Part shown: piece after piece, positions 17,175 to 62,075 of the stretch | How the letters are laid out: each line of letters opens with the position of its first letter | Position numbering within the stretch: the first letter of the stretch is position 1 | Assembly (NCBI GenBank): GCA_965203325.1 | Contig: OZ241875.1 | Location: 2,272,001-2,336,000, forward strand | Length of the DNA stretch: 64,000 bases | Direction of reading: 5' to 3' | Source of the DNA: a bacterium | GTDB taxonomy: Bacteria > UBA8248 | Position numbers and translations under genes: made by a program | The notes under the pieces: generated by a model | What the model saw: only the letters and a program-made list of their open reading frames with translations | Database searches by the model: none | Told to the model about the DNA's origin: nothing

Positions 17175-17180
17175 GGGCCG

Positions 17181-21173: not shown

Positions 21174-21198
21174 CAGTTTCTCTCCTGAACCGAATTTT

Positions 21199-21555: not shown

Positions 21556-21594
21556 TTTCTTCCCCTGCGCCCCGCTGGAATCTCCCCGCGGTTA

Positions 21595-24068: not shown

Positions 24069-24112
24069 CTCGCGATTCCAGGCCCGCATGAACCGCCGGG
24101 CGATTTGAACCC

Positions 24113-24160
24113 AAAAGAAAAACGCGTCGCTATCCCATGCGGCATGGGCGCGGCGCGTTT
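24113..24160 (-). terminator. Putative intrinsic terminator or stabilising hairpin between iscA and hscB
   Basis: Minus strand AAACGCGCCGC-GCCCATGCCGCATGGGATA-GCGACGCGTTT followed by TTCTTTT. Confidence 0.6.
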
Positions 24161-24173
24161 CATCCCGGTTGCG

Positions 24174-24530: not shown

Positions 24531-24561
24531 TTCCTGCCCCTTACACGCGAATCGCCCGCTT

Positions 24562-24975: not shown

Positions 24976-25059
24976 TTTCCCGTTCTCCTCTTTCCAGTTG
25001 CTGCGATTCCGGATTTCTGCGAGCCGCAGGCTCTATATCAAAATAAGCTCAACGCTCCT

Positions 25060-26280: not shown

Positions 26281-26702
26281 CTGATCTCTCCTGCAGGCGT
26301 ACCCACCATGTCCTGAAGGGTCATTCCTTCAAGCACGTCGGTCACCTTTTTCTGGATCCTTTCCATGGGATAAAAAATGGTGCATTTCTCGTATTGTTCA
26401 CAGCCCGTGGCGTCGCCGATCTGGCACGTCGCCATCGCGATGGGCCCCTCAATCGCCCGGATGACTTCGGCCACCGAGATGGTCTCGGGCCTGCGCGAGA
26501 GAACGTAGCCGCCCTTGGGGCCGTTTCTCGACTCCACGAGGTCATTTTTGGCCAGAAGCTGCATCGTCTTCGCGAGCAGCTCGGCGGGAATGCGGAACCG
26601 CTCCGCGATGGCGCGCGAGGTGATGGATCCCTCCTCTTCGCACTCCGCGAGGTAGCAAAGAGCCATCAAGCCGTAATCCGTACGCTTTGCAATTGCGAAC
26701 AT
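26277..26702 (-). CDS. iscR: Rrf2-family regulator (IscR-like)
   Basis: DYGL, L.K..LV.S..GP.GGY.L, IEGP; three C-terminal Cys; first gene of the isc operon. Confidence 0.8.
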
Positions 26703-31728: not shown

Positions 31729-32247
31729 ATGTCCGGCATTTTCGACAAGACTTCTCTTTTTCTCGCGGGCATTGCGCTGCTCCTGGCGTTTCTGGCGTAT
31801 CAGAAATCCGGCGAGCTGCCCTGGGCTCCCGCGGGCCGCGCGGGAAGCCTCATCGTGAACATTCTTCCCAAGCTCGTGATCGGCATGTTCATCGGCGCGC
31901 TCGTGGCCGACGTCCTGCCGAAGGAGATTCTGCAGAACTGGCTCTCCGATCGCTCCGGCTGGCGCGGCATCTTCGTCGGATGGCTGGCGGGGTTCATGTT
32001 CCCCATGGGCGCGCCCTTCGTACTCTATCCGCTCGTGGCCGGGCTTCTGCAGGGGGGTGCGGGCTTCGGGCCGATGATAACGATGCTCACCTCAGCAGCC
32101 CTGATCGGCCCGGTGCGCGCGTTCGCGTATGAAATCCCCATCCTCGGATCGGAGTTCTTCATGTTCCGCGTAATGGCCGTGTTCTGGATTCCGCCCGTGG
32201 CGGGCCTCGTCGCGCAAACGCTCGCGCGCGTCCTGAAAGGCGGCTAG
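31729..32247 (+). CDS. Small permease-like membrane protein
   Basis: Largely hydrophobic, LP......WL...SG.RG and P....L...GAG.G; GAGGA upstream. Confidence 0.7.
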   Translation: MSGIFDKTSLFLAGIALLLAFLAYQKSGELPWAPAGRAGSLIVNILPKLVIGMFIGALVADVLPKEILQNWLSDRSGWRGIFVGWLAGFMFPMGAPFVLYPLVAGLLQGGAGFGPMITMLTSAALIGPVRAFAYEIPILGSEFFMFRVMAVFWIPPVAGLVAQTLARVLKGG

Positions 32248-33143
32248 GCGCTTCTTCGGGGGACTTCGATGGGCAGATCTTCCCTGTCGCCCCACTCCTT
32301 CCAGGAGCCGAGATAGTTTCTGATCCTCGGGTAGCCCAGCAGCCGGTAGACGAGGTAGGCGTGCGCCGAGCGGTAGCCGCCCTGGCAGAGCGGCACCATT
32401 TCCTTATCAGGCGTCAGGCCCCTCGGCTCGAGCAACCCCTCGAGTTCGGAGGCGGGCTTGAGCGATCCGTCCGCCGCGATGGCCTCGCTCCATTCGAGGT
32501 GGACCGAACCCGGAACCGCCCCGCCGCGCGCCGCCCGGACGTTCTCTGCGAAATACTCGCCCTCCGAGCGCGTATCGTGAATCGCAACGTCCGTATCGCC
32601 CAGATGATCCAGTATGTACTCCGCCGTGGCGATGCGCCCTTCTTCATACGGCTTCAAGCGGCTCGCGAACGCGGTTCTTAAAATGCGCTTGTGGCCTTCG
32701 ACACCCGCCTCGTAGGGGCCTCCCGCCATCGGCCATGCGTCGCGCGTGAGGGGCAGCCCTGCGGCCTTCCAGGCGTCAATGCCGCCGTCCAGGACGTGCG
32801 CGTCCTCGTGGCCGAGATATTCCAGGAACCAGAACCCGCGCGCCGAGCGGAAACCCGTGTTCTCCTGATAGAAGACCACCGTCTTGTCGTAGTCGACGCC
32901 CCGTATCTCCATAAGATAGGCGAGCATCCAGGTGAAGGCGGCCAGCGCCTGGGGCCGGGTGTCGTTGAGCGAGATTCCGTAGAGATCCAGGTGCGCGGCG
33001 CCTTCGATGTGGCCCGCGCAAAACTCCGGCGCCTGACGGGTGTCGATGATGACGAGGTCGTCGCCCTTTCGTTCGCCGATGCGCTCTGCGAGTTGCGCGG
33101 GCGTGAGGGCGAGGCCCGGGTTCGCGCAGCCTTTCTCGCTCAC
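32244..33143 (-). CDS. Two-domain sulfurtransferase (rhodanese/SseA family)
   Basis: IDTR...F..GHI.GA, LDGG..AW, active-site loop CQGGYRS, NYLGSW.EW. Confidence 0.9.
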   Translation of the reverse strand: MSEKGCANPGLALTPAQLAERIGERKGDDLVIIDTRQAPEFCAGHIEGAAHLDLYGISLNDTRPQALAAFTWMLAYLMEIRGVDYDKTVVFYQENTGFRSARGFWFLEYLGHEDAHVLDGGIDAWKAAGLPLTRDAWPMAGGPYEAGVEGHKRILRTAFASRLKPYEEGRIATAEYILDHLGDTDVAIHDTRSEGEYFAENVRAARGGAVPGSVHLEWSEAIAADGSLKPASELEGLLEPRGLTPDKEMVPLCQGGYRSAHAYLVYRLLGYPRIRNYLGSWKEWGDREDLPIEVPRRSA

Positions 33144-33154
33144 CGGAAAGCTCC

Positions 33155-33697
33155 TTACCGAAACTCGCGGGGGCTTAACGGTTCAAGCTGGTCCGTGAGC
33201 TCTCTCGTCGTGGGCGAGGCCTGCAGCGGACGCACGTACACCTTCGCCTTCCCCTCGGGGGTGACGAAGCGGTAGCTCAGCTTGGCGACCTGGCCGTAGT
33301 TGTACCATACGTGCGTGTTGCGCTCTCCGCCGGTGACCAGGAGCAGATGGATCATCTCGACCGCTCCGTCGGAGCGAGTGATAAGCTCGAGCCGGTCGAT
33401 CTCGCGGGCGAAGGTTTCGGATTTTCCCGTCGCCAGCGTGATGGTGACGATGAGGTCCAGGGGACGCTGCGGTTGCGCAGGCGCAAGGGGGGCCTGCGGC
33501 GGCATCGCGGGCGCGGGTGGTGACAGGGCCGGGGCCGCTTGAGGCTGGCCGGGAACAACTCCGGGCGAAGCGGGCTGCGCCTCGGGCGGCGTCAGCGGCG
33601 GCGGCGTCAGGCTCTGCGCCTGGGCGCCCGCCGCCAAAAGAACCACCCCGAGCACGGCGAACAACAATTTCGGGAACCTTGTCTTGATTAAAAACAT
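33155..33697 (-). CDS. Hypothetical exported protein with Pro-rich N-terminus
   Basis: Signal peptide ending AQA, P/A/Q-rich linker; AAAAGGAGA upstream. Confidence 0.7.
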   Translation of the reverse strand: MFLIKTRFPKLLFAVLGVVLLAAGAQAQSLTPPPLTPPEAQPASPGVVPGQPQAAPALSPPAPAMPPQAPLAPAQPQRPLDLIVTITLATGKSETFAREIDRLELITRSDGAVEMIHLLLVTGGERNTHVWYNYGQVAKLSYRFVTPEGKAKVYVRPLQASPTTRELTDQLEPLSPREFR

Positions 33698-33760
33698 GGT
33701 CTCTCCTTTTTCAGGGAGTCGCGCTTTGTATGTGTTCGAATGATGTGCGCCTATTATACC

Positions 33761-35350
33761 TCATTTCGCCGCATCCGCAGCGCACCGAAACCCATACGCC
33801 GGCAATCGGCGCCCGGGAACGTCGCCCGTTCTGTGCGATGAGACTAGCGCCCACCACCCGTTCACCCAGGATCCCCCCTTGAGCGTTCGGAGCGCGCGGC
33901 CGTTCTGCTTGATCGACCGGGCGCCATCGGGCGTATTCCTGAATTCATCCTCCACCCACTCCCAGACGTTTCCGGCCAAATCCTCCACCCCGTGAACGCT
34001 GGCGCCTTCGGGTCGCCTTCCCACGGCCTTGGGCCCTCCGGCGTCCGGGCTCAGGCCGAAAACGGCGTTCCTGTCGCGTTGCGTATTCCCCCACGGATAC
34101 CGCCTGCCCTTGCCCGCGCCCTGGGCGGCGTATTCCCATTCGGCCTCCGTGGGCAGCCGTTTCCCGGCCCAGGCGCAGTAGGCGCGCGCCTCCTGCCATG
34201 TAATCCCGACCACGGGCAGATGAGGTCCCGTGAAATGGACCTTGCGCCAAAACGGAGGTTCGGGGGCTTTTGTCGCCCGCACGAAATCCGCGTAAAGCGC
34301 GTTCGTCACCTCGAACTTGTCCAGACGGAAAGGCCCGACTTCGACGGGCCTGCCGCCGGTCGCCCTTGGAGGGGCTCTCCTGCGGCGCGATCTCCTGCGA
34401 GACCTTTTCGGGTAGGTGAACTCGGCCCCCATCATGAAGCGCCCGCCGGGAATCGGCACCATCCCCTCGAGAGAGGGCTTGCGGACGGGAGGCGGCGCGG
34501 CGTCTTCGGCGGGGCGCGGCAATGGCTTCAACGCCCCGGGGGCTGTTTCGGGGAGCGCGAGTTTTGCGGTTTCGGTTTCCGGTTCGGGCTTTCGCCGCGC
34601 TTCGGGCTCAGGTTTTGACTCCGCTTCCGGCGTCAACCCGGGTTCAGGCGCTGATGATACTTCCGGGACCGCTTCGGTTTCGGGCGAGGGTTCCCCGGCT
34701 TTTGCTTCCTCTTTCTTTCCCTTTTTCGTCGGAAGCCGGGGAGGGGGCAGGCCCTTGATGGCGCGCGCCTTGAGTTCATGCTCGATGTTGGCGAGTTCGG
34801 GCCATCTCGACTTATCGAGCGAGCCGAGCAGCGCCTTCGCCTCTTTCAGCCGCCCGTAGCGATACAGCAGATAGGCGAGACCGCGCCGCGCGCTGCCGCT
34901 CTCGGGATAACGCGCGTTCGCCCGCCGGAAAAAGAAAAAGGCCTCATCGGGGCGATTCGAGTCGTACAGGGTCCAGCCGAGCCCCGTGAGGGCGTGGAGA
35001 CGTTCGGGATCATGAACGAGCGCCTCGCGAAAGCTTTTCTCGGCGAACTTGTAATCCTCTTGCCGATAGGCCGATTCTCCCGTTGCGCTGAAAGTCTCGG
35101 CGCGGCTCGGCGGAGACGGCTCGGGCTCCGGCGGGGCCGCAACCTCCTCCGGAGAGGACGGTTTGCGCTCCGGCGGAAGCGCGGGGGCCACGGAAAGCGT
35201 TCGCTTTAAGGCTTGGACGGGGAGAGGGGCGTCTCGAGGCGTTCCCTGCTCAGGCGCAATCGCCTCCCGGGCGGACAGCTCTACGCCGTCACAGCCAAAA
35301 CCCAGGAATGCCAGCGCAACGAAACATGTCGAGAGCAAAGGCGGGAGCAT
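33761..35350 (-). CDS. Lipoprotein with TPR-like repeats and C-terminal FGE/SUMF1-like domain
   Basis: Lipobox-like LGFGC; helical TPR-like repeats; MV.IPGG.F.MG, EVTN..Y, RLPTEAEWEYAA, GNVWEW, GGSW, GFRC. Start could be 35377. Confidence 0.82.
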   Translation of the reverse strand: MLPPLLSTCFVALAFLGFGCDGVELSAREAIAPEQGTPRDAPLPVQALKRTLSVAPALPPERKPSSPEEVAAPPEPEPSPPSRAETFSATGESAYRQEDYKFAEKSFREALVHDPERLHALTGLGWTLYDSNRPDEAFFFFRRANARYPESGSARRGLAYLLYRYGRLKEAKALLGSLDKSRWPELANIEHELKARAIKGLPPPRLPTKKGKKEEAKAGEPSPETEAVPEVSSAPEPGLTPEAESKPEPEARRKPEPETETAKLALPETAPGALKPLPRPAEDAAPPPVRKPSLEGMVPIPGGRFMMGAEFTYPKRSRRRSRRRRAPPRATGGRPVEVGPFRLDKFEVTNALYADFVRATKAPEPPFWRKVHFTGPHLPVVGITWQEARAYCAWAGKRLPTEAEWEYAAQGAGKGRRYPWGNTQRDRNAVFGLSPDAGGPKAVGRRPEGASVHGVEDLAGNVWEWVEDEFRNTPDGARSIKQNGRALRTLKGGSWVNGWWALVSSHRTGDVPGRRLPAYGFRCAADAAK

Positions 35351-35388
35351 CGCCCCTTCATTTCTTTCTCGCATCACCCACCCAGTAT

Positions 35389-38641: not shown

Positions 38642-41149
<2,508 letters not shown>

Positions 41150-42265
41150 TCAATCTATCCTTTCAACCGTTGCGTCTCGAACCAGAAAAGTTCTTCCGTC
41201 AATCTCGTTTGCGCTCAAGCCGGGCTCCTCAGTCGACGTGATGAACGTTTGCGCTCCCAAGGAGCCGAGAAACAACAGCATCCTCTTTTTCCTGTCCACG
41301 TCGAGCTCGGAACCCAGATCGTCGAGTAAAACGACGGGGGGCTCCCCTCTCCTCTTCTTGTATTCCTCGGCGTTCGCCGACACCAGCAATATCGTAGTGA
41401 GCCGCTGTTCGCCCTGGGAAGCAACATCCTTCGCCCGGCGCCCCTCCCAAAACAGGTGGAAATCATCGAACCGGGGACCCCAAAGCGTCGCTTTTCTCCT
41501 TGCTTCCTCTCTCGCGAGCCTCCCGGCAGTCGCCTGCAGGCCCTCTCTTATATCCCCTTCCGCTTCCTCGTCTCCTCCCGGAAGACCATTGGCTTCATAT
41601 GCCACCGAAACCCTGGACCCCTGCGTTTCCCCAAACAAACTCTCCAGGTGATTCAGCCGGTTTTTCAGTGAATTTATGTATCTTTTCCTGCGGACGATAA
41701 TGCGGGCGGCCACCTCGATCAATCGCTCCTGCCACACCTGAATCATAGCAGATTCAGACTCGTTTCTCAAAAGATGATTCCTCTCCGAGAGCAGTTTCGC
41801 ATAGGCCCTGGAATCTTCGAGATGGGCCGGTTCGACGGCCGCGATCGCCTGATCGAAAAAACGTCTCCTCGCTCCGGGGCCCTCCTTGACTATCTGGGTC
41901 GTCTCGGGAAAAAAGACGATGACGTGGGAGCTATCGAGATAGGGCATCAAGCCCCGCAACTCCTGCCCGTCCTTCTTGTATTTTCTCTCACGTCCGCTTA
42001 CCGCAGCCTCAAGCCTTGTTTCCGCGCCGCCTTCGCCCCCGGAGAACACGCCGGACGCATACATTCCCCCTGCGCCGTGAAGCACCATCTTCTCCCTGGA
42101 TGCCCGCCGAAAAGAACGCAGATGCGAGAGGTAGTAAATGGCTTCCAGCAAGTTCGTCTTGCCCGATCCGTTGTTGCCGAAAATGTAGTTAAACCCAGGG
42201 TGTGGTTTGAACCCGAGCCTTGGGTAGTTCCTGAAGTTTTTAAGAGTGAGCTCGATGAGGCGCAA
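41150..42265 (-). CDS. recF: DNA replication/repair protein RecF
   Basis: NFRNY, GNNGSGKTNLLEAI, RRRF.D, SQGEQR, LLDD..SELD; located next to gyrB. Confidence 0.92.
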   Translation of the reverse strand: MRLIELTLKNFRNYPRLGFKPHPGFNYIFGNNGSGKTNLLEAIYYLSHLRSFRRASREKMVLHGAGGMYASGVFSGGEGGAETRLEAAVSGRERKYKKDGQELRGLMPYLDSSHVIVFFPETTQIVKEGPGARRRFFDQAIAAVEPAHLEDSRAYAKLLSERNHLLRNESESAMIQVWQERLIEVAARIIVRRKRYINSLKNRLNHLESLFGETQGSRVSVAYEANGLPGGDEEAEGDIREGLQATAGRLAREEARRKATLWGPRFDDFHLFWEGRRAKDVASQGEQRLTTILLVSANAEEYKKRRGEPPVVLLDDLGSELDVDRKKRMLLFLGSLGAQTFITSTEEPGLSANEIDGRTFLVRDATVERID

Positions 42266-42282
42266 AGGATATCCTCAGATGC

Positions 42283-42492
42283 TAATTCTTTTAGAACTAT
42301 ATAATACTTAAATAGCAGTAGTAGCGGGAGCGGTGATATTGTGGAAAACCTCGCAAGATGTTCAAAAAAGAGCGCTTTCCCGGCCAGGGGGGTGTGGAAT
42401 TATTTGTGATTCGAGGCGAATGGCTGGGTGTTTCTTCTTTGGGCGCGAGGAATGCAGGGCAATTAACGTGGTTATCCACAATTCTTTCCACG
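42283..42492. other. Replication origin (oriC) unwinding region between dnaA and recF
   Basis: Perfect DnaA box TTATCCACA (42472-42480), near-boxes TGTGGAAAA (42340-42348) and TGTGGAATT (42393-42401), trinucleotide run TAG CAG TAG TAG CGG GAG CGG (42313-42333), adjacent AT-rich tract. Confidence 0.8.
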
Positions 42493-42498
42493 GGTGTT

Positions 42499-43830
42499 TC
42501 AAGAGATATCTATCTTTTGCTCGAGTGTTTGGATGGTGGCGGAGAGAGACGGGTCTGTTTTGATCAGGCCCTCGATTTTTTTGGTGGAGTGAATCACCGT
42601 GGAGTGATCCTTCCCGCCGAAGCGGCGGCCGATTTCCGTGGTCGAGGCGCGCGTGAGTTTCCTCGCGAGGAACATGGCGATCTGCCGGGGAACGGCGAAA
42701 GAGCGCGAGCGGTTTTTCGATTTCAGGTCGGCGACCCGGACCTGGAAGTGCTCGGCGACGATTTTCTGGATGTTGTCTACCGAGGAATTGCGGGTGGGGT
42801 CGCGGATGATGCCTTGCAGTATCTCCTGCGCGATGGGAAGGTCGATCTCGATGTCGTGCAGGGAAGCGTAGATGTTGAGTCTGATGAGGCAGCCCTCGAG
42901 TTCGCGGACGTTGGAGCGAACCCTGTCGGCGATATAGTGGGCGACCTCCCTGTGGAGGACGAGATCTTGTTCGCTCGCTTTTTTCTGCAGGATGGCCACT
43001 TTGGTCTCGAAGTCCGGTGCGCCGATATCCGCCATCATGCCTGAGCTGAAGCGCGACCTGAGGCGATTCTCCAGCCCCGGCGTGTCTCCGGGTGTTTTAT
43101 CGCTCGTGATGACGACCTGTTTCCTTTCTCGTTGCAATGAATCGAAAGTGAAGAAGAACTCCTCCTGGGTGCGTTCCTTTCCGGCGATGAACTGTATGTC
43201 GTCTATCATCAGGACGTCTACTTGTCGGTATTTGCTCCTGAAGGCGGCCATCTGGTTTTGTCGAATCGAGGCAATGAGGTCGTTGATGAAGCTTTCCGAA
43301 GAAGTGTAGAAGATGCGCGTCCTCGGCTGTCGATCGAGAATGTGGTGGGCGATGGCGTGCATCAGATGGGTTTTTCCGAGCCCCACCCCGCCGTAGATGA
43401 AAAGCGGGAAGAGGGAGGCTCCCAGGCCGTCCGCCAGGCGGAGGCTGCAGGCATGGGCGAATTGGTTCGATCCTCCCACCACGAAGTTGTCGAAACGATA
43501 CTTGGGATTGAGAAAGGCCGGCTTCTCCGGGGGCTCTTTTTCTTTCTCGGCCGGGACCGGCGCGTCTGAGACGATAGTTCCGTTTGTCGGCGCGTCGCTC
43601 GCCGAGAGGGTGATCATCACGTTCGGCCCGGCCTCTTGTTCGAGGATGTCCTGGATGATTCCCCAGTAGCGTGAGCGCAGGGTCCCCGCCGTAAACGGAT
43701 CGGGGGCCTGAATCGCCAGCGTGTTCTCGCTCGAATTCAACTCTTCGATGCCGGCAAACCAGCGGGAGAACGTCTGGGGGGAAACCTCTTGCTCGATTTT
43801 TTCCGCGCAACGCTGCCAAAGAGTCGTCAT
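42499..43830 (-). CDS. dnaA: Chromosomal replication initiator DnaA
   Basis: LNPKYRFDNFVVG.SN, GGVGLGKTHL, DDIQF, RELEG, FGGKDHSTV; probable start MTTLW at 43830. Confidence 0.97.
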   Translation of the reverse strand: MTTLWQRCAEKIEQEVSPQTFSRWFAGIEELNSSENTLAIQAPDPFTAGTLRSRYWGIIQDILEQEAGPNVMITLSASDAPTNGTIVSDAPVPAEKEKEPPEKPAFLNPKYRFDNFVVGGSNQFAHACSLRLADGLGASLFPLFIYGGVGLGKTHLMHAIAHHILDRQPRTRIFYTSSESFINDLIASIRQNQMAAFRSKYRQVDVLMIDDIQFIAGKERTQEEFFFTFDSLQRERKQVVITSDKTPGDTPGLENRLRSRFSSGMMADIGAPDFETKVAILQKKASEQDLVLHREVAHYIADRVRSNVRELEGCLIRLNIYASLHDIEIDLPIAQEILQGIIRDPTRNSSVDNIQKIVAEHFQVRVADLKSKNRSRSFAVPRQIAMFLARKLTRASTTEIGRRFGGKDHSTVIHSTKKIEGLIKTDPSLSATIQTLEQKIDIS

Positions 43831-43894
43831 AAGGAGAGCCAATCCACAAAATTCAAGGCGCGACGAGGGCTTTTTGCGCCGCGCAGGAACGGGT

Positions 43895-43973
43895 TTTTCC
43901 ACAGGGCGAGATAAAACTTGACCCGGGGGAGCACTTTTCCACAAAATGCCTCAAAAGGCAAGGGTTTTCCACA
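43895..43973 (+). promoter_or_regulatory. Three DnaA-box-like TTTTCCACA sites upstream of dnaA
   Basis: Identical 9-mers at 43895, 43935 and 43965, one mismatch from TTATCCACA. Confidence 0.75.
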
Positions 43974-44096
43974 AAAAACATGGCATTTTTCCGGCAAACG
44001 AGGATTTTTCTTCTTCGAAGGAGCAACGAACGGTACGCGAAGCCGGTCTCCCGTCCATTCGGGGCCGGTAAGTTCGAGCACCCCCGCAGGAGGTTC

Positions 44097-44125
44097 TTGA
44101 CAATCGGGATTTTGGTGGCTACTTT
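44097..44125 (+). promoter_or_regulatory. Putative sigma70 promoter of the rpmH operon
   Basis: TTGACA-N17-TACTTT. Confidence 0.6.
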
Positions 44126-44210
44126 ACGCTCGGCTTCTTGGGGAAGCCTTTCTCAAGCGTTATATGTCGGGTTTAACGCTCGGCTTTTGGGCCGGCAGAC
44201 GGAGTAGTTG

Positions 44211-44351
44211 GTGAAACGAACTTACCAGCCGAACAGAAGAAAACGAGCGAAGACGCACGGGTTTCGCCGCCGGATGAAGACCACCGGCGGACGCGCAATC
44301 ATCAGGCGTCGACGGATTAAGGGCCGCAAGCGGCTCGGCGTTTCCGCCTAG
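44211..44351 (+). CDS. rpmH: 50S ribosomal protein L34 (absent from the ORF track)
   Basis: Manual translation from [53 protein letters not shown] upstream. Confidence 0.97.
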
Positions 44352-44395
44352 ACGGCGCGCCGGGCTTGCCGACCCTCGACCGGGAGGGCGCGGGC

Positions 44396-44743
44396 ATGGA
44401 TGAGGGCTTCCCGCCGGAGCGGCGAATCCGCAAGGGGAGCGACTTCGCCGCCGTTCTCAGAAAAGGACGCAAACGCAGGTGTCCGTACTTCACGCTGCAT
44501 ATCCTGCCGACTCCTTCTCGGGATTGCGCGCGCCTCGGCATCATCGCGTCGCGCCGGGTGGGCGGCGCCGTCCAGAGGAATCGCGCCAAACGGCTCCTCC
44601 GCGAGGTGTTTCGGCGTCACGGCTCACGGCTCCCCCCAGGAGTGGACCTTGTGGCCGTGGCGAGGAACTCGATCGCCAAGGCGAGGCTAGAGGATGTTGA
44701 AAGGGCGTTCCGCAACGCTTTCCACGGGAAGACGAATTCCTGA
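44396..44743 (+). CDS. rnpA: RNase P protein component
   Basis: RLGI..SRRVG.AV.RNR.KR.LRE.FR; follows rpmH. Confidence 0.93.
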   Translation: MDEGFPPERRIRKGSDFAAVLRKGRKRRCPYFTLHILPTPSRDCARLGIIASRRVGGAVQRNRAKRLLREVFRRHGSRLPPGVDLVAVARNSIAKARLEDVERAFRNAFHGKTNS

Positions 44744-44981
44744 AAAAGAGATCGGCCCCGTCTCTCGGGCGATCCGTGTTCTGGCGATGGCTCTGATTCG
44801 GGGATATCAACTCGTTTTGTCTCCCGTGATGCCGGGCAGTTGCCGCTTTTCACCCTCTTGTTCTTGTTATGCGCTCGAGGCGTTCAGGCGCCACGCGCCC
44901 GCTCGGGCCTTGTGGCTCACCGTGCGCCGCATCGGGCGCTGCCATCCATTTCACCCCGGGGGAAACGATCCGGTTCCCTGA
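44694..44981 (+). CDS. yidD: Membrane protein insertion efficiency factor YidD
   Basis: LIRGYQ..LSP, CRF.PSCS.Y..EA, RI.RCHPFHPGG.DPVP; true start uncertain (could be 44787). Confidence 0.9.
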   Translation: MLKGRSATLSTGRRIPEKEIGPVSRAIRVLAMALIRGYQLVLSPVMPGSCRFSPSCSCYALEAFRRHAPARALWLTVRRIGRCHPFHPGGNDPVP

Positions 44982-45007
44982 GGGGTCCGGCGGAGGCGCC
45001 TTACATC

Positions 45008-46651
45008 ATGGAAAGAAACGCGATTCTCGCCGCCGTCTTGTCGATGGCGATACTGATCGGCTGGCAATACCTCGTCGTGAAGCCCATGGAAGACGAGCAG
45101 GCCCAGAAGCAGAAGGTGGCCAAGGAGCGCGCGGCGGCACAGAACAGGGAACGAGGGAGCGCGGCGAGTACGCCGCTCAGGGCGCCCGCCTCCGTCGCCG
45201 GCCAGCCGTCCGCGCCCGCCGCTCCGTCTGCGCCGACGGAAGCCGCTCCCGGCCGGCGTGTTCGCGTGGACGTGGGCGACGCGGTGTATGAGTTGACCAA
45301 CCGGGGCGCGGGGTTTTTGTCCGCGCGACTCCTGAAATACAAACAGGGCGAAAAGAATTCTGTCCAGCTCGTACCTCCGGGCCGCCCGGACGTACGGCCC
45401 CTTTTCTTCTGGGGCGGAAAGACGGCGCAGCGGCTCAACGAGGCCTCCTACGAGGTCGAGGGCGGCGACCTCTCGCTCTCGAAGACGAATCCGGAAGGGA
45501 CGGTTCGCTTCGTCTACCGCGGCGCCGACGGCCTCTCGGCGGAGAAGGCGCTCACCTTCCGCCATAACGAATTCAACATCCGTACGAGGATTCGCGTCAC
45601 CCGCCCCTCCGGGGCCGAGGCGATGGGAATCGTCTGGGGGCCGCGCGTCGGCGGGAGCGACGGCAACACCTACGGCGGCGTCATCGAGGGCCCCATGAGC
45701 TTCGTGGGCGAAGAACTCGAATACGACTATCCCGAGGAGGCGAAACCCGTCACCCACGGTGAGAGCCTCAAGTGGACATCGCTCCAGTCGAAGCACTTCA
45801 TCGCGGCGCTCATCCCCCGAGGCGGGGCGGGCGGAGCGGAGATACGCCTTCTCTCCCAGACGGACGACTTAAGCGAATACGCCGCCATCGTTCCTTTCGC
45901 GCAGGGAAAGGACATCGATGCGGCCTTCGACGTCTACGTGGGGCCGAAGGCGTTGGACCACCTCGAAAAACTCAAGGTCAACCTCGAGGACTCCCTGGAC
46001 TACGGGATGTTTTCTTTCATCGCCAAGCCGCTCATGTCGATCCTGCGTTTTTTCCACGGGTTCGTGGGCAACTGGGGCGTGGCCATCATCCTGCTGACCA
46101 TCCTGGTGAAGATTATCTTCTACCCGCTCACCCACGTCAGCATGCGCAACATGAAGGAGATGCAAAAACTCCAGCCGCGCATCACGCAACTCCGCGAGAT
46201 ATATAAAGACGACAAGAACAGGCTGAACGAGCAGACCATGGCCTTGTATAAGGAGCACAAGGTCAACCCGATGATGGGCTGCCTGCCCATGCTGATACAG
46301 ATACCCGTCTTCTTCGGGTTGTACGAGGCGCTCCTGGTGTCGATAGAGTTGCGCAACGCGCCCTTTTTCGGCTGGGTGCAGGACCTCTCGGTGCAGGACC
46401 CCTATCACGTGTATACGATACTCATGGGCGCTTCGATGTTCCTGCAGCAGAAAATGACGCCCACCGCGGGCGACCCCACCCAGGCGAAGATGATGATGCT
46501 CATGCCCGTCGTCTTCACGGGCATGTTCATCTTCTATCCCGTGCCCGTGGGGCTGGTGATCTACTGGCTGGTGAACAACCTGCTCTCCATCGCTCAGCAA
46601 TTCTACGTGAACCGTTCCGTTCAGCCGCCCAAGCTGGCCGAGGAGAACTGA
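45008..46651 (+). CDS. yidC: Membrane protein insertase YidC
   Basis: N-terminal TM, YVGPK, DYG, NWGVAIILLT, GCLP.LIQIPVF, GLVIYW.VNN. Confidence 0.95.
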   Translation: MERNAILAAVLSMAILIGWQYLVVKPMEDEQAQKQKVAKERAAAQNRERGSAASTPLRAPASVAGQPSAPAAPSAPTEAAPGRRVRVDVGDAVYELTNRGAGFLSARLLKYKQGEKNSVQLVPPGRPDVRPLFFWGGKTAQRLNEASYEVEGGDLSLSKTNPEGTVRFVYRGADGLSAEKALTFRHNEFNIRTRIRVTRPSGAEAMGIVWGPRVGGSDGNTYGGVIEGPMSFVGEELEYDYPEEAKPVTHGESLKWTSLQSKHFIAALIPRGGAGGAEIRLLSQTDDLSEYAAIVPFAQGKDIDAAFDVYVGPKALDHLEKLKVNLEDSLDYGMFSFIAKPLMSILRFFHGFVGNWGVAIILLTILVKIIFYPLTHVSMRNMKEMQKLQPRITQLREIYKDDKNRLNEQTMALYKEHKVNPMMGCLPMLIQIPVFFGLYEALLVSIELRNAPFFGWVQDLSVQDPYHVYTILMGASMFLQQKMTPTAGDPTQAKMMMLMPVVFTGMFIFYPVPVGLVIYWLVNNLLSIAQQFYVNRSVQPPKLAEEN

Positions 46652-47750: not shown

Positions 47751-48343
47751 GCAAGGGATCCTCTCGTGTGGAGTGGACGCTTCCCGTCCGAAACCGCCAT
47801 CTCCTGCTCACGAGGGGAAGGCGCCGGGCCATGCCGCCCGTCAAGACGCTGCGCGCCCTGGGCCTTGAGCGCGGCATGAGTTTCCTGGACATCGGCTGCG
47901 GACCCGGTTATTTCTCGGTTCCCGCCTGCAGGGTGGTGGGAAAGAATGGTCGCGTGTTCGCCTGCGACATCTCCCCGGTGATGATCAGGGAACTCAAATC
48001 GTCAGCCGAAGAGCGCGGCTACGCGAATCTTACGGCGAAGCGAAACCAGGGTTCGCGAATTCCCTTTCCGGATGCGTGCGCGGACTTTGCCCTCATCGCG
48101 TTCGTGCTCCACGGAGTGTCCGACGTCCAGCCCATGTTCGCCGAGTCAAGACGCGCGATGAGGAAGGGCGCCGCCATCACGCTCATCGACTGGCACAAGG
48201 AGCCCATGGACATGGGGCCGCCCCTCGAGGCGCGCTTTGAGCCCGAAGAACTCGTAAACGAGTTGCGCGATGCGGGCTTTCGCAAAGCCCGTTGGTGGGA
48301 TTTCGACGGCAACACCTATTTCGTCTCCGCAAAAGCGCCCTGA
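47747..48343 (+). CDS. Class I SAM-dependent methyltransferase
   Basis: LDIGCGPGYF, DIS..M, LH, DW......GPP...R; TTG start overlaps the upstream TGA. Confidence 0.85.
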   Translation: MSKGSSRVEWTLPVRNRHLLLTRGRRRAMPPVKTLRALGLERGMSFLDIGCGPGYFSVPACRVVGKNGRVFACDISPVMIRELKSSAEERGYANLTAKRNQGSRIPFPDACADFALIAFVLHGVSDVQPMFAESRRAMRKGAAITLIDWHKEPMDMGPPLEARFEPEELVNELRDAGFRKARWWDFDGNTYFVSAKAP

Positions 48344-48346
48344 CGG

Positions 48347-48375
48347 CTGTCAAGGTGGAGGCGTTGCGCTATAAT
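48347..48375 (+). promoter_or_regulatory. Putative sigma70 promoter of the SDR pair
   Basis: CTGTCA-N17-TATAAT. Confidence 0.5.
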
Positions 48376-48402
48376 CCGGCACTCATGGAGGCGGCGAGCA
48401 AG

Positions 48403-49164
48403 ATGGAAGACAAATCCTCGATTCAAGGACACGTGGCGCTCGTGACGGCGGGCGCGGTGGGCATCGGCGAGGCAATCGCCGAGCGCCTCGCGCATGAGGG
48501 CGCGCGCGTCGTGTTGTTGGATCTCGACCAGACGCAAGGCGAGGCGACCGCGCAGCGGATACGCGAGGCGGGGGGCGAGGCCCGCTTCGTCAATACCGAC
48601 GCCACCTCGGCGAGCGAGGTCAAAGCGGCCGTGGCCGAGGCGCTTCACGAGTGGGCGCGCATCGACATTCTGGTGAACTGCGCAGGCGGCTTCGTGGAGA
48701 ATCCGCTCATCGAAGATTTGGATGAGGCGCAGTGGCGCAGGGCCGTGGACTTGAATTTGAAAAGCGCCTACCTGTGCGCGCGCGAGGTGATGCCCGTCAT
48801 GAAGAAAAGACGCTATGGCCGCATCGTGAGCATCTCCTCCCAGTCGGGCCGCGACTCCGTTATCGAGACGGGCTTGGCCTACAGCGCCGCCAAGGCGGGC
48901 CTTTTCGGCTTTGGGAGGCGGCTGGCGGTGGAAGTCGCTCCCCACGGCGTCACGGTGAACACGGTGGCCCCGGGCGTGGTGCTCACCCCGAGGACGGCCG
49001 TGGTCCATAAGGACAGACTGCCCGAGATAATCGCGAAAATACCGGCGGGCCGCGTGGCGGACGCCGCGGACATCGCCGACGCCGTGTGGTATCTCGCCAG
49101 ACCCGAGGCGCGTTACGTCACGGGCGTGACGCTCGACGTCAACGGCGGCAGGTACGTTCACTAG
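48403..49164 (+). CDS. SDR family oxidoreductase
   Basis: TAGAVGIG, ILVNCAG, YSAAK, VN.VAPG, YVTG..LDVNGG. Confidence 0.92.
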   Translation: MEDKSSIQGHVALVTAGAVGIGEAIAERLAHEGARVVLLDLDQTQGEATAQRIREAGGEARFVNTDATSASEVKAAVAEALHEWARIDILVNCAGGFVENPLIEDLDEAQWRRAVDLNLKSAYLCAREVMPVMKKRRYGRIVSISSQSGRDSVIETGLAYSAAKAGLFGFGRRLAVEVAPHGVTVNTVAPGVVLTPRTAVVHKDRLPEIIAKIPAGRVADAADIADAVWYLARPEARYVTGVTLDVNGGRYVH

Positions 49165-49177
49165 AAAGGACAATCGC

Positions 49178-49936
49178 GTGCATGAGCGATCCTCGATAAA
49201 AGATCACGTCGCCATCGTCACCGGCGCGACCGACGGCATCGGCCTGGCGACGGCGATACGCTTCGCGGACGAGGGCGCGAAGGTGGTGATTACGGGGCGC
49301 GACCCGGACCGCGGCTCGGCGGCCTTGGCCACGGTGAGCGCGCACGGCGACGCCATATTCGTCCAGGGCGACGCCGCCCGGAAAGAAGACGTCGACCTTC
49401 TCTTCGCCCGCACGCTCGGAACGTGGGGGCGCCTCGACATTCTGGTGAACTGCGCGGGCGGTTTCGTGGAGGTGCCCGATATCGAGGACCTCGACGAGGC
49501 GGAGTGGGAAAAGATCGTCGAATGGAACCTCACGAGTTGTTATCTCGCCACCCGGGCGGCGGCGGCTCCGATGAAAGAGAGAGGCTATGGCCGCATCGTG
49601 AACGTCTCGTCCATCTCCGCGCGCGACGCCCTGGCGAACGTATCCCTGGTCTACAGCGCCGCGAAATCCGCCATGCAGGGCTTCACGAGGAGACTCGCGG
49701 TGGAACTCGCTCCCCACGGCGTCACGGTGAACGCCGTGGCCCCGGGCGTGACGCTCACCAAGCGCTTTCGCCTGGTGCACCAGGAGCGCGTGCCGCAGAT
49801 AGTGGCGAACTTGCCGGTGGGCTTCGGCGGAGAGCCCGAGGACATCGCCGATGCGATCTGGTATTTCTCCACCCCCGGTTCGGGCTACGTCACGGGCGCG
49901 ACCATCGACGTGAACGGCGGCCAGTATGTGAACTAG
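49178..49936 (+). CDS. SDR family oxidoreductase (paralogue of 48403..49164)
   Basis: TGATDGIG, ILVNCAG, YSAAK, VNAVAPG, YVTG..IDVNGG; AGGA upstream of GTG. Confidence 0.92.
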   Translation: MHERSSIKDHVAIVTGATDGIGLATAIRFADEGAKVVITGRDPDRGSAALATVSAHGDAIFVQGDAARKEDVDLLFARTLGTWGRLDILVNCAGGFVEVPDIEDLDEAEWEKIVEWNLTSCYLATRAAAAPMKERGYGRIVNVSSISARDALANVSLVYSAAKSAMQGFTRRLAVELAPHGVTVNAVAPGVTLTKRFRLVHQERVPQIVANLPVGFGGEPEDIADAIWYFSTPGSGYVTGATIDVNGGQYVN

Positions 49937-50046
49937 CCGCCTTGAACGATTTCGGCCCGACGCGCGCCGATACCTCCGAAACAGGCGGATTCGTGGTATC
50001 ATCCCGAATCACGAGAGTTCCAAGCCGTCTAAACGCCAGAGGAGCC

Positions 50047-50451
50047 ATGCAAATGCGATATCTCCTGCTCATGTTTGGTTTGGCCTTGCTCGCCGCCGTC
50101 CTGGTTTTGCCGCAGGCCGCGCTCGCCTTGGAAGGGTGGAAGCCCTATGACACCAAGGCGTTCGCCCAGGCCCAAAAAGACGGAAAGACGATTTTCGTGG
50201 CCGTCCACACCGAGTGGTGAGGGACGTGCAGGCAGCAGGTGCCGCTGCTTCAGTCCCTGATTAAAGAGAAGAAGTTCGAAAACGCCGCCACGTTCGTGGT
50301 GGACTACGACACCCAGCGCGATTTCCTGAAAGAACACAGCGTTCGCTGGCAATCGACGATCATCGTCTTCAAGGGCGCACAGGAAAAGGGCCGCTCGACG
50401 GGCGACGTGGACATTGCGAGCATCCGGAGCCTCATGGCGCGCGCGCTGTAG
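50047..50451 (+). CDS. Exported thioredoxin-family protein with UxxC motif (probable selenoprotein, TGA at 50218-50220)
   Basis: GAGGAG plus ATG, signal peptide, ...VAVHTEW-TGA-GTCRQQ... continues in frame into VDYDTQ, QSTIIVFKG and GRSTG to TAG at 50449-50451. Confidence 0.85.
50221..50257 (+). promoter_or_regulatory. Bacterial SECIS-like hairpin
   Basis: GGGAC..TG.AGGCAGC-[AGGTGCC]-GCTGCTTCA-GTCCC directly 3' of the UGA; loop begins after 16 nt and has G as its second base. Confidence 0.7.
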
Positions 50452-50503
50452 AACGAACGGAACCGGCGAACGAGGGCCTGGCTTCCGCGGACCTTTCTCG
50501 TTT

Positions 50504-51559
50504 TCATCCGAGCGGCGAGACGGCCACCTCTCCGTCTCTTACGGCGACTTCCGTTCCGTAGGGAGCGGAGAATCTTTTCATCATATCCACGATCTCGCGG
50601 CCCTCACCGCGCCTCGGCGAGAGGGGTTTGGGCGCGCCGCCCACGCCGCAGCGGCAGGGGATGAGGTGAAGGTCGCTCAGCCCTTCTTTGTCCATGCGTC
50701 CGCCCAGCAGAAACGACTGAAGCGTCGCATCCGTGAAGAAAGGCTCGACTTCGTCGAAAATCAGATTCCCGCTGCAGTGGACGATGGGCCGGCCGTTGTA
50801 GAACTCGATGGCGGAGAGCACGTGCTGGTGTCCGCCGAAGACGGCGCACGCGCCCGCGTCGATCGCCGCTTTCCCGATCTCCCTTTGATGCTCGTGCACC
50901 TCGTGACGCATGCTCGCCCCCCAGTGCTGGTAGACGAAGACGAGGTCGACCTCGGTCTTGAGCCGGGCGACCTCTTCTTTCATCCGCGCGAGGTCTTCCG
51001 CCACCGCCCAGGAGTGGATGACGGGTTCGGAAGCCGGGTATTCGTCCAGGTTTCTGAGCGGCGTGTAGGACGTCCTGACGCGTAGGGGGTTCACGCCGGG
51101 CTCGTCCGCGTCGGCCGCGTGGCCCTGCGGCAACACGGACGAATAGGCGAGCAGGCCAACCCTCAGCCCGCCGCGATCGAGCACGACGGGGGCTCCCGCG
51201 TCTTCCAGGTCCATTCCCGCGCCCGTGAAAGGGATCCTCGCGCGGCGCAGCGTCACCATGGTTTCTTCGAGAGAGGGAACCCCGAAATCGAGCAGGTGGT
51301 TGTTCGCGATTCCCACCGCGTCGAAGCCGGCATCCACGAGTCCCGCCACCAGAGAGGGGTGTCCACGGTGCTTGGTCGCCTTTCCCTTCATGAGTTCGCC
51401 GCGCGTCGATAGCGCGTTCTCGAGATTCGCGAAAGAAAAATCGGCGCCGCGGAACAGTTTTCCCAGCTGGCCGAACATTCCCTTGGCGGAAGCCCTGTCG
51501 GGCGCGATGTCGCCGCCTGTGAGAAATGAAGCGGTGGAGTGAGGATTTTTTTTACTCAT
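50504..51559 (-). CDS. CapA (PGA_cap) family metallophosphatase-like protein
   Basis: GD, NLE, ANNH..DFG, HWG, GGH.H, .GN..F motifs. Confidence 0.88.
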   Translation of the reverse strand: MSKKNPHSTASFLTGGDIAPDRASAKGMFGQLGKLFRGADFSFANLENALSTRGELMKGKATKHRGHPSLVAGLVDAGFDAVGIANNHLLDFGVPSLEETMVTLRRARIPFTGAGMDLEDAGAPVVLDRGGLRVGLLAYSSVLPQGHAADADEPGVNPLRVRTSYTPLRNLDEYPASEPVIHSWAVAEDLARMKEEVARLKTEVDLVFVYQHWGASMRHEVHEHQREIGKAAIDAGACAVFGGHQHVLSAIEFYNGRPIVHCSGNLIFDEVEPFFTDATLQSFLLGGRMDKEGLSDLHLIPCRCGVGGAPKPLSPRRGEGREIVDMMKRFSAPYGTEVAVRDGEVAVSPLG

Positions 51560-60306: not shown

Positions 60307-61152
60307 ATGGATATCACACCCGGAGCGACCATCTCCCCGAGCGTTCCCGACGCAGGCGCCAATGAAGGCCCGTGCACGATCGTGGCCGTCGTGAACCAGA
60401 AAGGCGGCGTCGGCAAGACGACGACGGCCGTCAACCTCGCGGCCTGCCTCGCCGTAGCGGATCAGCCGACGCTGCTGGTCGACATGGACCCGCAATCGAA
60501 CGCGACGAGTAATTTCGGTTTATTTTCGCCTTCATCTTCACTCTACAGGGCGCTCGTGCTGGGCGAGTCGATAGACGATGAATCCCTGTATGACACTGAA
60601 ATTAAATGCTTAAGCGTTTTGCCCTCCTCCATCGACCTGGCGGGTGCGGAAGTGGAGATCGCGGATTTGCCGCAAAGAGAGAGCCGCTTGCGGAACGTCA
60701 TCGAACCGCTCCGGAGCCGGTTCCGTTATATCCTCATCGACTGCCCGCCCTCTCTGGGTTTTCTCACCTTGAACGGCTTACGGGCGGCGGACGAGGTGCT
60801 CATCCCCATTCAGGCGGAGTATTTCGCATTGGAGGGGCTGGCCCGGCTCATGAAGACGGTGGAGCGGATACGCGGCAGCGTTCATCCCGATCTCAGAATA
60901 GGCGGCATTCTGCTCACCATGTATGACTCGAGGACGAATCTCTCGCGTCAGGTGAACGAGGACTTGCGCTCCCATCTGCCGGAGTTGACCTACAGGGCCG
61001 TGATTCCCAGGAACGTGCGCCTCGCCGAGGCGCCGAGCCACGGGAAGCCGGTGATCACCTACGACATCTCCTCGCCGGGCGCACAGGCGTATCTCGCGCT
61101 GGCGGGCGAGTTCATCACGCGCTCGAAGGAAAGGATGAAAAACCGGACATGA
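60307..61152 (+). CDS. parA: Chromosome partitioning ATPase ParA/Soj
   Basis: NQKGGVGKTTT, D.DPQ.NAT, IDCPPSLG, EYFALEG, IPRNVRLAEAPSHG; start uncertain. Confidence 0.94.
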   Translation: MDITPGATISPSVPDAGANEGPCTIVAVVNQKGGVGKTTTAVNLAACLAVADQPTLLVDMDPQSNATSNFGLFSPSSSLYRALVLGESIDDESLYDTEIKCLSVLPSSIDLAGAEVEIADLPQRESRLRNVIEPLRSRFRYILIDCPPSLGFLTLNGLRAADEVLIPIQAEYFALEGLARLMKTVERIRGSVHPDLRIGGILLTMYDSRTNLSRQVNEDLRSHLPELTYRAVIPRNVRLAEAPSHGKPVITYDISSPGAQAYLALAGEFITRSKERMKNRT

Positions 61153-62075
61153 CGACCGTGAGAAAAAAAGTGCTCGGACGGGGCCTGGACGCGCTCCTGG
61201 CCTCCCATGATGCGCAAGAGCCCGCACCGGCGGTACTGGACCCTCCTGGAGGCGCCGCCGAAGACGGGGGCATTCTGATGCGGCTTTCTCCTGCCCGCCT
61301 CGCTCCCGGCGTTCACCAGCCGCGCGTCGATTTCGACGAGGAGGACCTGGCCGAACTGGCCGAATCCGTGAAGCGCCACGGGGTGATCCAGCCCCTTCTT
61401 GTCCGGCGCGCCCCGGGCGGGGGATACGAGATCGTGGCCGGGGAACGGCGCTGGCGGGCCGCGCGCCTGGCGGAAGTCGATGAGGTTCCCGCCATCCTGG
61501 TCGACGCGGGCGGGGATGAGGCGCTCGAGCTCGCCATCGTCGAGAACGTGCAGCGCGCGGACCTGAATCCCATGGAAGAGGCGGCCGCGTATGCGAGCAT
61601 GATGGAGCGCCTGGGTCTCACGCAGGAAGAGACCGCCTCCCGCGTGGGCAAGGACCGCTCCACCGTCGCGAACTACCTCCGCCTGCTCAATCTGCCCGCC
61701 TCCGTTCAGGAGAGCGTCGCCGCAGGACTCCTCACCATGGGGCACGCCAGGGCGCTCTTGTCCCTGCGCACGGACGAGGAGATGGCGAGCCACGCCAGCG
61801 CCGCCGTCGAGAAGAGGCTCTCCGTGCGCCAGCTGGAGACGCGCGTCAGGCGCGTGCTCGAAGGCGGGAGAGAGAATAGGGAAGCCCTGCCGCGGCCCGT
61901 TCCGCAGAACGGGCCCTCGGGGCCGCAGGCGCTTTATCTCAGGGAGGCGGCCGAGCGGCTCAGAAGCGCGCTGGGAACGAAAGTCGCGATTTCGGGAGAC
62001 GAGGAGAGCGGAAAGATAGAAATAGAGTATTATACGAGGGATACGCTTGAGGGGTTGCTCCAGCGGCTTTGTTAG
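61149..62075 (+). CDS. parB: Chromosome partitioning protein ParB/Spo0J
   Basis: LGRGLDALL, QPR..F, GVIQP, GERRWRAA, EN.QR.DLNP.EEA, RSTVAN.LRLL.LP. Confidence 0.95.
   Translation: MTTVRKKVLGRGLDALLASHDAQEPAPAVLDPPGGAAEDGGILMRLSPARLAPGVHQPRVDFDEEDLAELAESVKRHGVIQPLLVRRAPGGGYEIVAGERRWRAARLAEVDEVPAILVDAGGDEALELAIVENVQRADLNPMEEAAAYASMMERLGLTQEETASRVGKDRSTVANYLRLLNLPASVQESVAAGLLTMGHARALLSLRTDEEMASHASAAVEKRLSVRQLETRVRRVLEGGRENREALPRPVPQNGPSGPQALYLREAAERLRSALGTKVAISGDEESGKIEIEYYTRDTLEGLLQRLC

Follow-up and report, generated by a model that had tools for sequence, protein, structure and literature searches.

Selenocysteine (Sec) insertion in bacteria is SelB-dependent and uses an in-frame UGA together with an adjacent downstream stem-loop, the selenocysteine insertion sequence (SECIS). 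The Sec-thioredoxin of Treponema is cytoplasmic, and ResA, CcmG/DsbE, and TlpA are extracytoplasmic thioredoxins that depend on CcdA/DsbD. The tables of two publications list the Treponema denticola Sec-thioredoxin as 'Thioredoxin (Trx), PF00085, UxxC' and as experimentally verified, citing Kim et al. 2015 (PMC13188914, PMC9312934). Predicted selenoproteins with a thioredoxin fold and a UxxC motif in the same tables include thiol:disulfide interchange (PF13098) and thiol-disulfide isomerase-like (PF13905) proteins, and further DsbA-like (PF01323), DsbG-like (PF13462), and redoxin family proteins (PMC9312934, PMC13188914). Trxlp of Edwardsiella piscicida (PDB 5ZF2 and 5ZPV) is described in PMC6636751 as secreted independently of the type III and type VI secretion systems; for its Cys form, the same paper reports weak insulin-reductase activity, far below that of classical thioredoxins. 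Here, we describe a gene at positions 50047–50451 of a 64,000-nucleotide stretch of bacterial DNA (contig OZ241875.1, the whole stretch being referred to as the window), in which we see, very probably, a conserved Sec-type recoding in an exported Trxlp-like thioredoxin.

Open reading frame (ORF) calling with translation table 11 revealed that the upstream frame stopped at the TGA at 50218–50220 and that a 70-aa ORF (50239–50451) followed in the same frame, as expected from the preliminary description of this DNA, which had proposed one gene split by the ORF track into two in-frame halves. When the TGA was read as Sec (U), 50047–50451 was translated into 134 aa containing W-U-G-T-C, with TAG at the end. 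The features of the gene are as follows:

50053–50451, + strand: putative complete selenoprotein gene of 132 codons, one of them the Sec-UGA, followed by TAG; the alternative start at 50047 gives 134 aa
50038–50044, + strand: Shine-Dalgarno-like AGAGGAG, 8 nt before the ATG at 50053 and 2 nt before the ATG at 50047
50215–50229, + strand: active-site motif W-U-G-T-C (codons tgg at 50215, tga at 50218, ggg, acg, and tgc at 50227), aligning with WCPxC in 15/15 protein relatives and lying at the N-terminus of model helix 59–72
50218–50220, + strand: in-frame TGA, the inferred Sec codon; the aligned codon is TGC/TGT in 75/80 loci and TGA in 5/80
50449–50451, + strand: TAG stop codon, read directly and homologous in relatives

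The length of 134 aa with the TGA at codon 58, as originally proposed, holds for the start at 50047, whereas the second ATG, at 50053, is probably the true start and gives 132 aa with Sec at codon 56. We prefer this start because of the spacing of AGAGGAG, because the counterpart of the first ATG in one TGA-containing relative (L001, with GAGGAGG 7 nt ahead of its own start) has TGA as the very next codon, and because 13 of the 14 public N-terminal gene-calls described below begin at the second Met.

A protein search yielded 16 relatives among 117 candidates, 15 of them full-length, and in all 15 full-length proteins the TGA position (C58) was an invariant Cys within WCPxC. A genomic scan of one genome per species with the patterns QSTLIVFKG or WCP[TV]C matched at least 600 stretches; 581 of these proved to be relatives, and the 80 best ones were analyzed. 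The aligned codon was taken by tblastn, which gave a high-scoring segment pair across the motif in 80/80 loci; it was TGC or TGT in 75 loci and TGA in five (L001, L003, L010, L064, and L068), all encoding W-U-S-T-C. The latter count is a lower bound, since close relatives of the window, which combine QSTIIVFKG with TGA, escape the patterns used. The claim that the TGA falls exactly on the first Cys of a WCxxC motif was therefore borne out by both the proteins and the loci, and the tblastn comparison proposed as a check on it returned homologues of both kinds, with Cys codons and with TGA.

These alignments also bear on a reassigned genetic code, in which TGA would be a sense codon read as Trp or Gly (compare NCBI tables 4 and 25). 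The frame is open under such codes, which is by itself no evidence for them. TGA stopped 18 of the 31 family-supported window genes at their expected ends, making it the commonest stop, and occurred in-frame inside none of them, with TGG used 124 times; moreover, the aligned homologue residue was Cys, not Trp or Gly. We consider the probability of a reassigned code to be negligible.

The TGA genes of the five relatives showed 54–61% identity to the window over the aligned protein. In the four complete ones, the frame was open from a signal-peptide-like N-terminus through to the homologous TAG, and in L068, which begins at a contig edge just before the motif, the downstream frame was intact. 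Nei-Gojobori ratios of nonsynonymous to synonymous substitution (dN/dS), calculated separately upstream and downstream of the TGA, were 0.20–0.79 in all 28 computable pairwise comparisons, with downstream values of 0.20–0.59; in two other comparisons, both upstream, substitutions had reached saturation.

A quick maximum-likelihood tree of 81 sequences placed the six TGA genes and the Cys-form gene L002 (WCSTC) in one clade with a Shimodaira–Hasegawa-like approximate likelihood ratio test (SH-aLRT) value of 98, hereafter the Sec clade. Branching within this clade was not resolved in the quick tree, which allows either of two possible histories: Sec may have replaced Cys once, or L002 may have gone back from Sec to Cys. 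TAG is the stop codon of all seven clade genes (window, L001, L002, L003, L010, L064, and L068), in contrast to the window as a whole, where TGA is the stop used most often; a second UGA close to the SECIS may be avoided, or the pattern may be due to chance.

Gene order around the locus was origin-proximal and common to the window, L001, and L003. L001 showed the order recF, dnaA, rnpA, yidC, a 363-aa gene, a methyltransferase gene, two short-chain dehydrogenase/reductase (SDR) genes, the Sec gene, GalT, and OpuAC, and L003 showed the order Sec gene, PGA_cap, OpuAC, mnmE, gidA, and parAB. The shared gene order identifies the L001 and L003 genes as orthologues of the window gene that have kept the TGA. 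The two SDR-family genes are tandem paralogues that lie directly upstream of the putative selenoprotein gene on the same strand (window 48292–49936, +), and the pair is kept in L001.

The same interruption was found in public gene-calls. At the protein level, 33 public clusters of short gene-calls belonged to the Sec clade, comprising 14 N-terminal and 19 C-terminal halves. Every N-terminal half (54–57 aa) stopped at the W just before the TGA position, and 17 of the 19 C-terminal halves were 70 aa long, beginning with MPLL(Q/E)SL right after the motif. Three pairs of N- and C-terminal halves sat on equally long contigs, and the half-genes of the window's close relatives were 80–97% identical. 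Among the four half-calls with source names, three were named 'hypothetical protein [Nitrospinae/Nitrospinota bacterium]' and one 'thioredoxin 1'; none of the four was flagged as a selenoprotein. The expectation that standard annotation would miss this gene thus agrees with the public records, which split it into halves that are mostly called 'hypothetical protein'.

A nonsense pseudogene, or a TGC or TGT codon misread as TGA through faulty sequencing or assembly, is the outcome that the preliminary description had named as its own refutation. TGA is one base from either codon, and gene callers do treat the locus as two fragments. However, the same TGA was present in five independent, diverged genomes, the break recurred in both the N-terminal and the C-terminal clusters of public gene-calls, the downstream frame was open to the homologous stop in all TGA relatives and carried the low downstream dN/dS given above, and synonymous sites were most conserved around the TGA. 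Since the TGA is common to six sequences at this level of divergence, error or recent nonsense mutation was ruled out, and we regard explanations of this kind as very improbable.

Domain analysis of the 134-residue translation identified the Pfam Thioredoxin family PF00085 at residues 37–130 (40.2 bits against a cut-off of 23.5, E 3.7e-10), while PF13098 (19.6 bits) and PF13905 (14 bits) were both under their 27-bit cut-offs. An AlphaFold2 model built from a 16-row alignment showed a thioredoxin fold with a mean predicted local distance difference test (pLDDT) score of 87.3 and 103 residues at 90 or above. Strand 48–54 was followed by U58 at the N-terminus of helix 59–72, and residues 1–30 formed a lone helix of low pLDDT. 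The original identification of the product as a thioredoxin therefore stands, with PF00085 above its cut-off and a thioredoxin-fold model.

Structural and profile comparisons pointed to a specific branch of the thioredoxins. The top 50 Foldseek matches listed were thioredoxins or thioredoxin-like proteins, and the best solved match was 5ZF2, with a target-normalised TM-score of 0.94, a root-mean-square deviation of 1.0 Å over 101 columns, and 32% identity. The profile of the relatives likewise matched 5zpv (E 4.6e-32) and 5zf2 (3.9e-31), with classical thioredoxins at approximately 1e-14. The classical thioredoxin equivalog TIGR01068 scored 44.5 bits, below its cut-off of 96.8, and the ResA, DsbE, and TlpA models matched weakly (18–26 bits against cut-offs of 123–230). 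NCBIfam contained no dedicated model for the gene, the best selenoprotein-specific match being TsoB at 22.3 bits against a cut-off of 805. Invariant residues in the alignment of the protein relatives were D86, D88, Q102, T104, I106–G110, and R116–D120, and the subfamily signatures were D(Y/F)DTQ(R/K)D, QST(I/L)IVFKG, and RSTGD. As judged from sequence, the product belongs to a particular thioredoxin family, predicted to be exported, in which Trxlp (5ZF2) is the member with a solved structure. Q-S-T (window 50356–50364, within VRWQSTIIVF) occurred in the whole family, including Cys forms, Sec forms, and Trxlp, apparently at the loop where classical thioredoxins carry a conserved cis-Pro-Thr.

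The N-terminal feature of the predicted protein is as follows:

50053–50127, + strand: signal-peptide-like N-terminus MRYLLLMFGLALLAAVLVLPQAALA, recognized by inspection from its basic n-region, hydrophobic core, and AxA; predicted cleavage after A-L-A

The hydrophobic N-terminus of the 134-residue reading is MQMRYLLLMFGLALLAAVLVLPQAALA. By inspection, every aligned family member has a basic n-region followed by a hydrophobic core and a site of the AxA type. The signal-peptide-like N-terminus and the family's link to CcdA, described below, suggest a periplasmic location.

The model also bears on the possibility that the locus encodes two small proteins, an exported peptide of 55 residues and, from GTG 50239 onward, a cytoplasmic fragment of 70 residues, with the hairpin downstream of the TGA acting as a translational coupling or attenuation signal. 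This GTG exists and is used by gene callers. However, such a break would interrupt the active-site motif within one compact thioredoxin fold, which the model predicts at pLDDT above 90 across the junction; conservation extends to the second Cys and to codons 59–62, located between the TGA and the GTG; and 75 of the 80 relatives are single uninterrupted genes. Two separate products thus have next to no probability, and the comparative and half-call evidence excludes two small genes, as well as error and recent nonsense mutation, for practical purposes.

With a single recoded gene as the preferred reading, the RNA downstream of the TGA was analyzed, and two elements were identified:

50221–50257, + strand: SECIS-like stem-loop with lower stem GGGAC/GUCCC and a 7-bp upper stem, 50230–50236 with 50244–50250
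50237–50243, + strand: apical loop AGGUGCC, 7 nt, starting 16 nt after the UGA, with G at loop positions 2 and 3

The minimum-energy fold spanned 50218–50260, with GGGAC at 50221–50225 paired with GTCCC at 50253–50257, and it reproduced the hairpin with a G-containing apical loop 16 nt downstream that had been noted at the outset. The fold of 50218–50270 had an energy of −22.3 kcal/mol (z = −2.97), which was equaled by 2 of 200 dinucleotide shuffles. In the five TGA relatives, the loop was AGUU or AGGU, also 16 nt from the UGA.

We compared these hairpins with the bacterial SECIS (bSECIS) model as given in section 5 and the Fig. 2 legend of PMC13188914 (loop of 3–9 nt, upper stem of 4–16 bp, G in the first two loop positions, UGA–loop spacing of 16–37 nt, and energy at or below −7.5 kcal/mol), implemented with ungapped stems. 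The window's upper hairpin (−8.7 kcal/mol; loop 7 nt, upper stem 7 bp, spacing 16 nt) fits this model. All four bSECIS criteria were satisfied by 6/6 TGA genes compared with 6/75 Cys genes, so that prediction against the published model agreed with the proposed SECIS. The combination of a 16-nt spacer with a loop of N-G-[G/U] was found in 6/6 TGA genes versus 1/75 Cys genes, the single exception being L002. The 48 nt from the codon onward folded with a median energy of −19.95 kcal/mol in TGA genes versus −12.4 kcal/mol in Cys genes (Mann-Whitney p 7.6e-5), and the GC content of these stretches was practically equal (0.625 vs 0.628). Over the ten codons that follow the UGA, synonymous-codon identity among five Sec genes was 66/84 (0.79), versus 331/530 (0.62) in the rest of the mature gene, and the five most conserved of the 95 ten-codon windows all overlapped the UGA and the hairpin.

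The hairpin also bears on read-through of the UGA without Sec, in which Cys, Trp, or another residue would be inserted by a near-cognate or suppressor tRNA or by a sulfur-loaded Sec pathway, giving a full-length ordinary (or Trp-blocked) thioredoxin-like protein. Selection on the downstream half and conservation of the TGA say nothing about the inserted residue, and neither the window nor the fetched flanks yielded any Sec machinery. On the other side, a bSECIS-type hairpin as specified in the cited sections of PMC13188914 stood at a fixed 16 nt in 6/6 TGA genes compared with 1/75 Cys genes, and the TGA replaced the catalytic Cys, a typical Sec position in the tables of PMC13188914 and PMC9312934. 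TGA is also an efficient stop elsewhere, ending 18 of the 31 family-supported genes, and a single mutation would give an ordinary Cys codon, a simpler route that L002 shows to be open. Read-through without Sec is accordingly improbable in our assessment, and Sec is the residue we infer at the UGA. The proposal that Sec replaces the catalytic Cys with an adjacent 3' SECIS is thus supported by homology, TGA conservation, selection, and the fit of the hairpin.

Several observations weigh against Sec-type recoding in an exported protein. The six TGA genes are kin, so the 6/6 count and the folding p-value overstate independence. RNAalifold found no compensatory pairs among the six TGA sequences and hence no covariation support; because the five TGA relatives share an identical hairpin core (AGCGGC-AGUU-GCCGCU), they give no covariation signal. 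One compensatory pair was present in L002 (C-G to A-U, both changes synonymous), which was not significant, being equaled in 76 of 500 shuffles. The window hairpin lies in a register shifted from that of the relatives and would hold an A-C mismatch in theirs. Cys-form L002 (10166–10213, TGT, WCSTC) keeps a SECIS-like hairpin at the 16-nt spacing, which could be a SECIS left over from a switch of Sec to Cys or else a structure imposed by the encoded peptide, and part of the hairpin in general might reflect the encoded peptide RRQLPL. Export is predicted from inspection of the N-terminus. No tRNA-Sec was found: the 64-kb window held no tRNAs, and the six related loci held tRNA-Lys and tRNA-Asn only. 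No selA, selB, or selD was detected among the 51 window ORFs scanned or the fetched flank ORFs; their absence from the window is expected, since it covers 64 kb of a multi-megabase genome. A second selenoprotein was likewise not found, as no Pfam domain spanned the TGA in the 56 of 193 TGA-interrupted window frames that were searched. Finally, the placement of the window organism in the selenoprotein-rich UBA8248 lineage described below is a link that only record names suggest.

The 56 frames sent to Pfam were those not mostly inside confident genes, and five of them contained a Pfam domain, each confined to one side of the TGA. A filter on GC content at third codon positions (GC3) retained 18 TGA-interrupted frames as selenoprotein candidates, all of which were rejected as antisense shadows or adjacent same-frame genes; the filter also dropped the target gene, since its upstream open frame extends back into the SDR gene. 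Rfam searches gave no match at gathering thresholds across the whole window, and at E ≤10 within 50150–50350 gave only chance-level sRNA and snoRNA matches, which are uninformative.

According to Table 2 of BSepDB (PMC13326102), three Nitrospinota/Nitrospinae metagenome-assembled genomes (MAGs; GTDB UBA8248) with 48–54 selenoprotein genes each are among the ten most selenoprotein-rich bacteria. Record names suggest that the window organism belongs to this lineage, which would give the recoding indirect support. In the parts of the literature on selenocysteine and selenoproteins in Nitrospinota, UBA8248, and Tectomicrobia that were available to us, no description of the present protein was found.

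Elsewhere in the window (32244–35377, −), a 538-aa protein has a C-terminal domain that matches the SenA (selenoneine synthase) and EgtB models far under their cut-offs (86 bits against 420), and its neighbor is a sulfurtransferase of the rhodanese type that weakly resembles ExtH and TsoB. The SenA-like neighbor is suggestive by name only and is not evidence of selenium metabolism.

Under Sec-type recoding, the gene would give a mature thioredoxin-fold thiol-disulfide oxidoreductase of approximately 107 residues, sent to the periplasm by its N-terminal signal peptide, with selenocysteine as the attacking active-site residue in the motif U-G-T-C. The UGA at 50218–50220 would escape reading as a stop because the stem-loop that begins at the next nucleotide would act as a bacterial SECIS and, by analogy with the established bacterial mechanism, bring SelB, loaded with GTP and Sec-tRNA(Sec), to the ribosome. 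Once the protein is in the periplasm, its selenolate would attack a substrate disulfide or oxidised thiol to form a mixed selenenylsulfide, which the Cys at +3 would resolve into an internal Se-S bond, and a membrane electron transporter would then re-reduce this bond. The catalytic cycle, reductant, and substrate are put forward here as predictions. For most of the family, the re-reducing transporter would be of the CcdA/DsbD type, encoded approximately 10 nt downstream; in the Sec clade, such a gene is not adjacent.

Neighbor clustering showed a gene of approximately 238 aa on the same strand, approximately 10 nt downstream, in 52 of the 80 loci. This neighbor carries DsbD_TM (PF02683), and tblastn detected a DsbD_TM gene in 73 of the 80 loci. 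By the same method, none was found in the five TGA loci, L002, or L053, and there was none in the window (best tblastn E 2.5). On this sequence evidence, Trxlp-like proteins are predicted exported thioredoxins that usually have a CcdA-type electron transporter as partner, an adjacent CcdA/DsbD_TM gene being typical of the family rather than its formal definition. One database protein (P0017, 146 aa) continues unbroken from the family's C-terminal half into a DsbD/CcdA-type membrane domain and could be either a natural thioredoxin–transporter fusion or a missed stop.

The Sec clade was set apart from the rest of the family by three marks: Sec, S-T or G-T instead of P-T/V, and no adjacent transporter gene. 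It is conceivable, though doubtful on present evidence, that the TGA genes and L002 form an undescribed exported selenoprotein subfamily derived from CcdA-coupled Trxlp-like periplasmic thioredoxins. If so, the three marks would suggest a changed job, such as that of a periplasmic selenium-based peroxide, sulfenate, or disulfide reductase, served by another electron donor, in a lineage that is rich in selenoproteins and labelled Nitrospinota. Such a subfamily would then be overlooked entirely by present catalogues and annotation, where it appears as two 'hypothetical proteins'.

Promoter scanning of 49850–50650 identified no promoter-like sites, and terminator scanning of the same interval identified two terminator-like sites, with approximately one expected by chance, neither of them convincingly the gene's own. 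The window also contains the chromosomal replication-origin neighborhood (38642–46651 and 60307–62075), with the minus-strand genes gyrB, recF, and dnaA, the plus-strand genes rnpA and yidC, and, at a greater distance, parA/parB; this order is partly shared by L001 (recF, dnaA, rnpA, yidC, and parA) and L003 (parA and parB). In L003, gidA/mnmG appears as two overlapping ORFs (15796–17722), which is probably due to a frameshift or assembly error in the MAG. An iron-sulfur cluster assembly set (window 20958–26702, −) comprises genes for an IscX-like protein, the ISC ferredoxin, HscA, an Rrf2/IscR-type regulator, and an HscB-like J-protein, the last named by eye and without a Pfam match.

The practical value of this locus lies in annotation. 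Because an in-frame TGA stands at the catalytic position, where it is most likely read as Sec, gene finders cut the gene into two 'hypothetical proteins', and it appears in public calls as halves in 33 clusters. No NCBIfam selenoprotein model captures the gene, and one built for it would therefore retrieve an exported selenoprotein that occurs repeatedly. With this finding, a family whose structurally solved Cys representative is reported to be a poor general disulfide reductase (PMC6636751) would gain a Sec form, and L002, set against the window or L001, would make a naturally occurring Sec/Cys pair with which to study the benefit of selenium to a periplasmic thioredoxin. The gene also indicates that the source organism probably uses Sec. 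Knowledge of how Sec is decoded stays as before, and the finding would not surprise a selenoprotein specialist.

Comparison with known systems places the window protein nearest to two described thioredoxins. As in the T. denticola Sec-thioredoxin, according to the tables cited above (PMC13188914, PMC9312934), it combines PF00085 and UxxC, with Sec as the N-terminal attacking residue, and an in-frame UGA with a downstream bacterial SECIS; in contrast to that protein, compared by description only, it has a signal-peptide-like N-terminus and separate subfamily signatures. It belongs to the same family as Trxlp, with the FDTQK...QSTLI signature aligned in the profile match. Unlike the window protein, Trxlp has Cys rather than Sec and comes from a gammaproteobacterial fish pathogen, where it is described as a host-targeting effector (PMC6636751), a role that finds no support here.

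The window protein also resembles the predicted UxxC families as tabulated in PMC9312934 and PMC13188914 in being a thioredoxin-fold oxidoreductase that is found by the logic of Cys/TGA plus SECIS and that is commonly mis-annotated as truncated genes, whereas its best Pfam family is PF00085, and no selenoprotein-specific NCBIfam model comes near its cut-off for it. As in ResA, CcmG/DsbE, and TlpA, an exported CxxC-type thioredoxin domain is accompanied by a DsbD_TM transporter in 73/80 family loci; unlike these proteins, the window protein, whose nucleophile would be Sec, has no adjacent transporter gene, and neither has the rest of the Sec clade. The gene thus joins the known kind of Sec-thioredoxin, possibly as a new subfamily.

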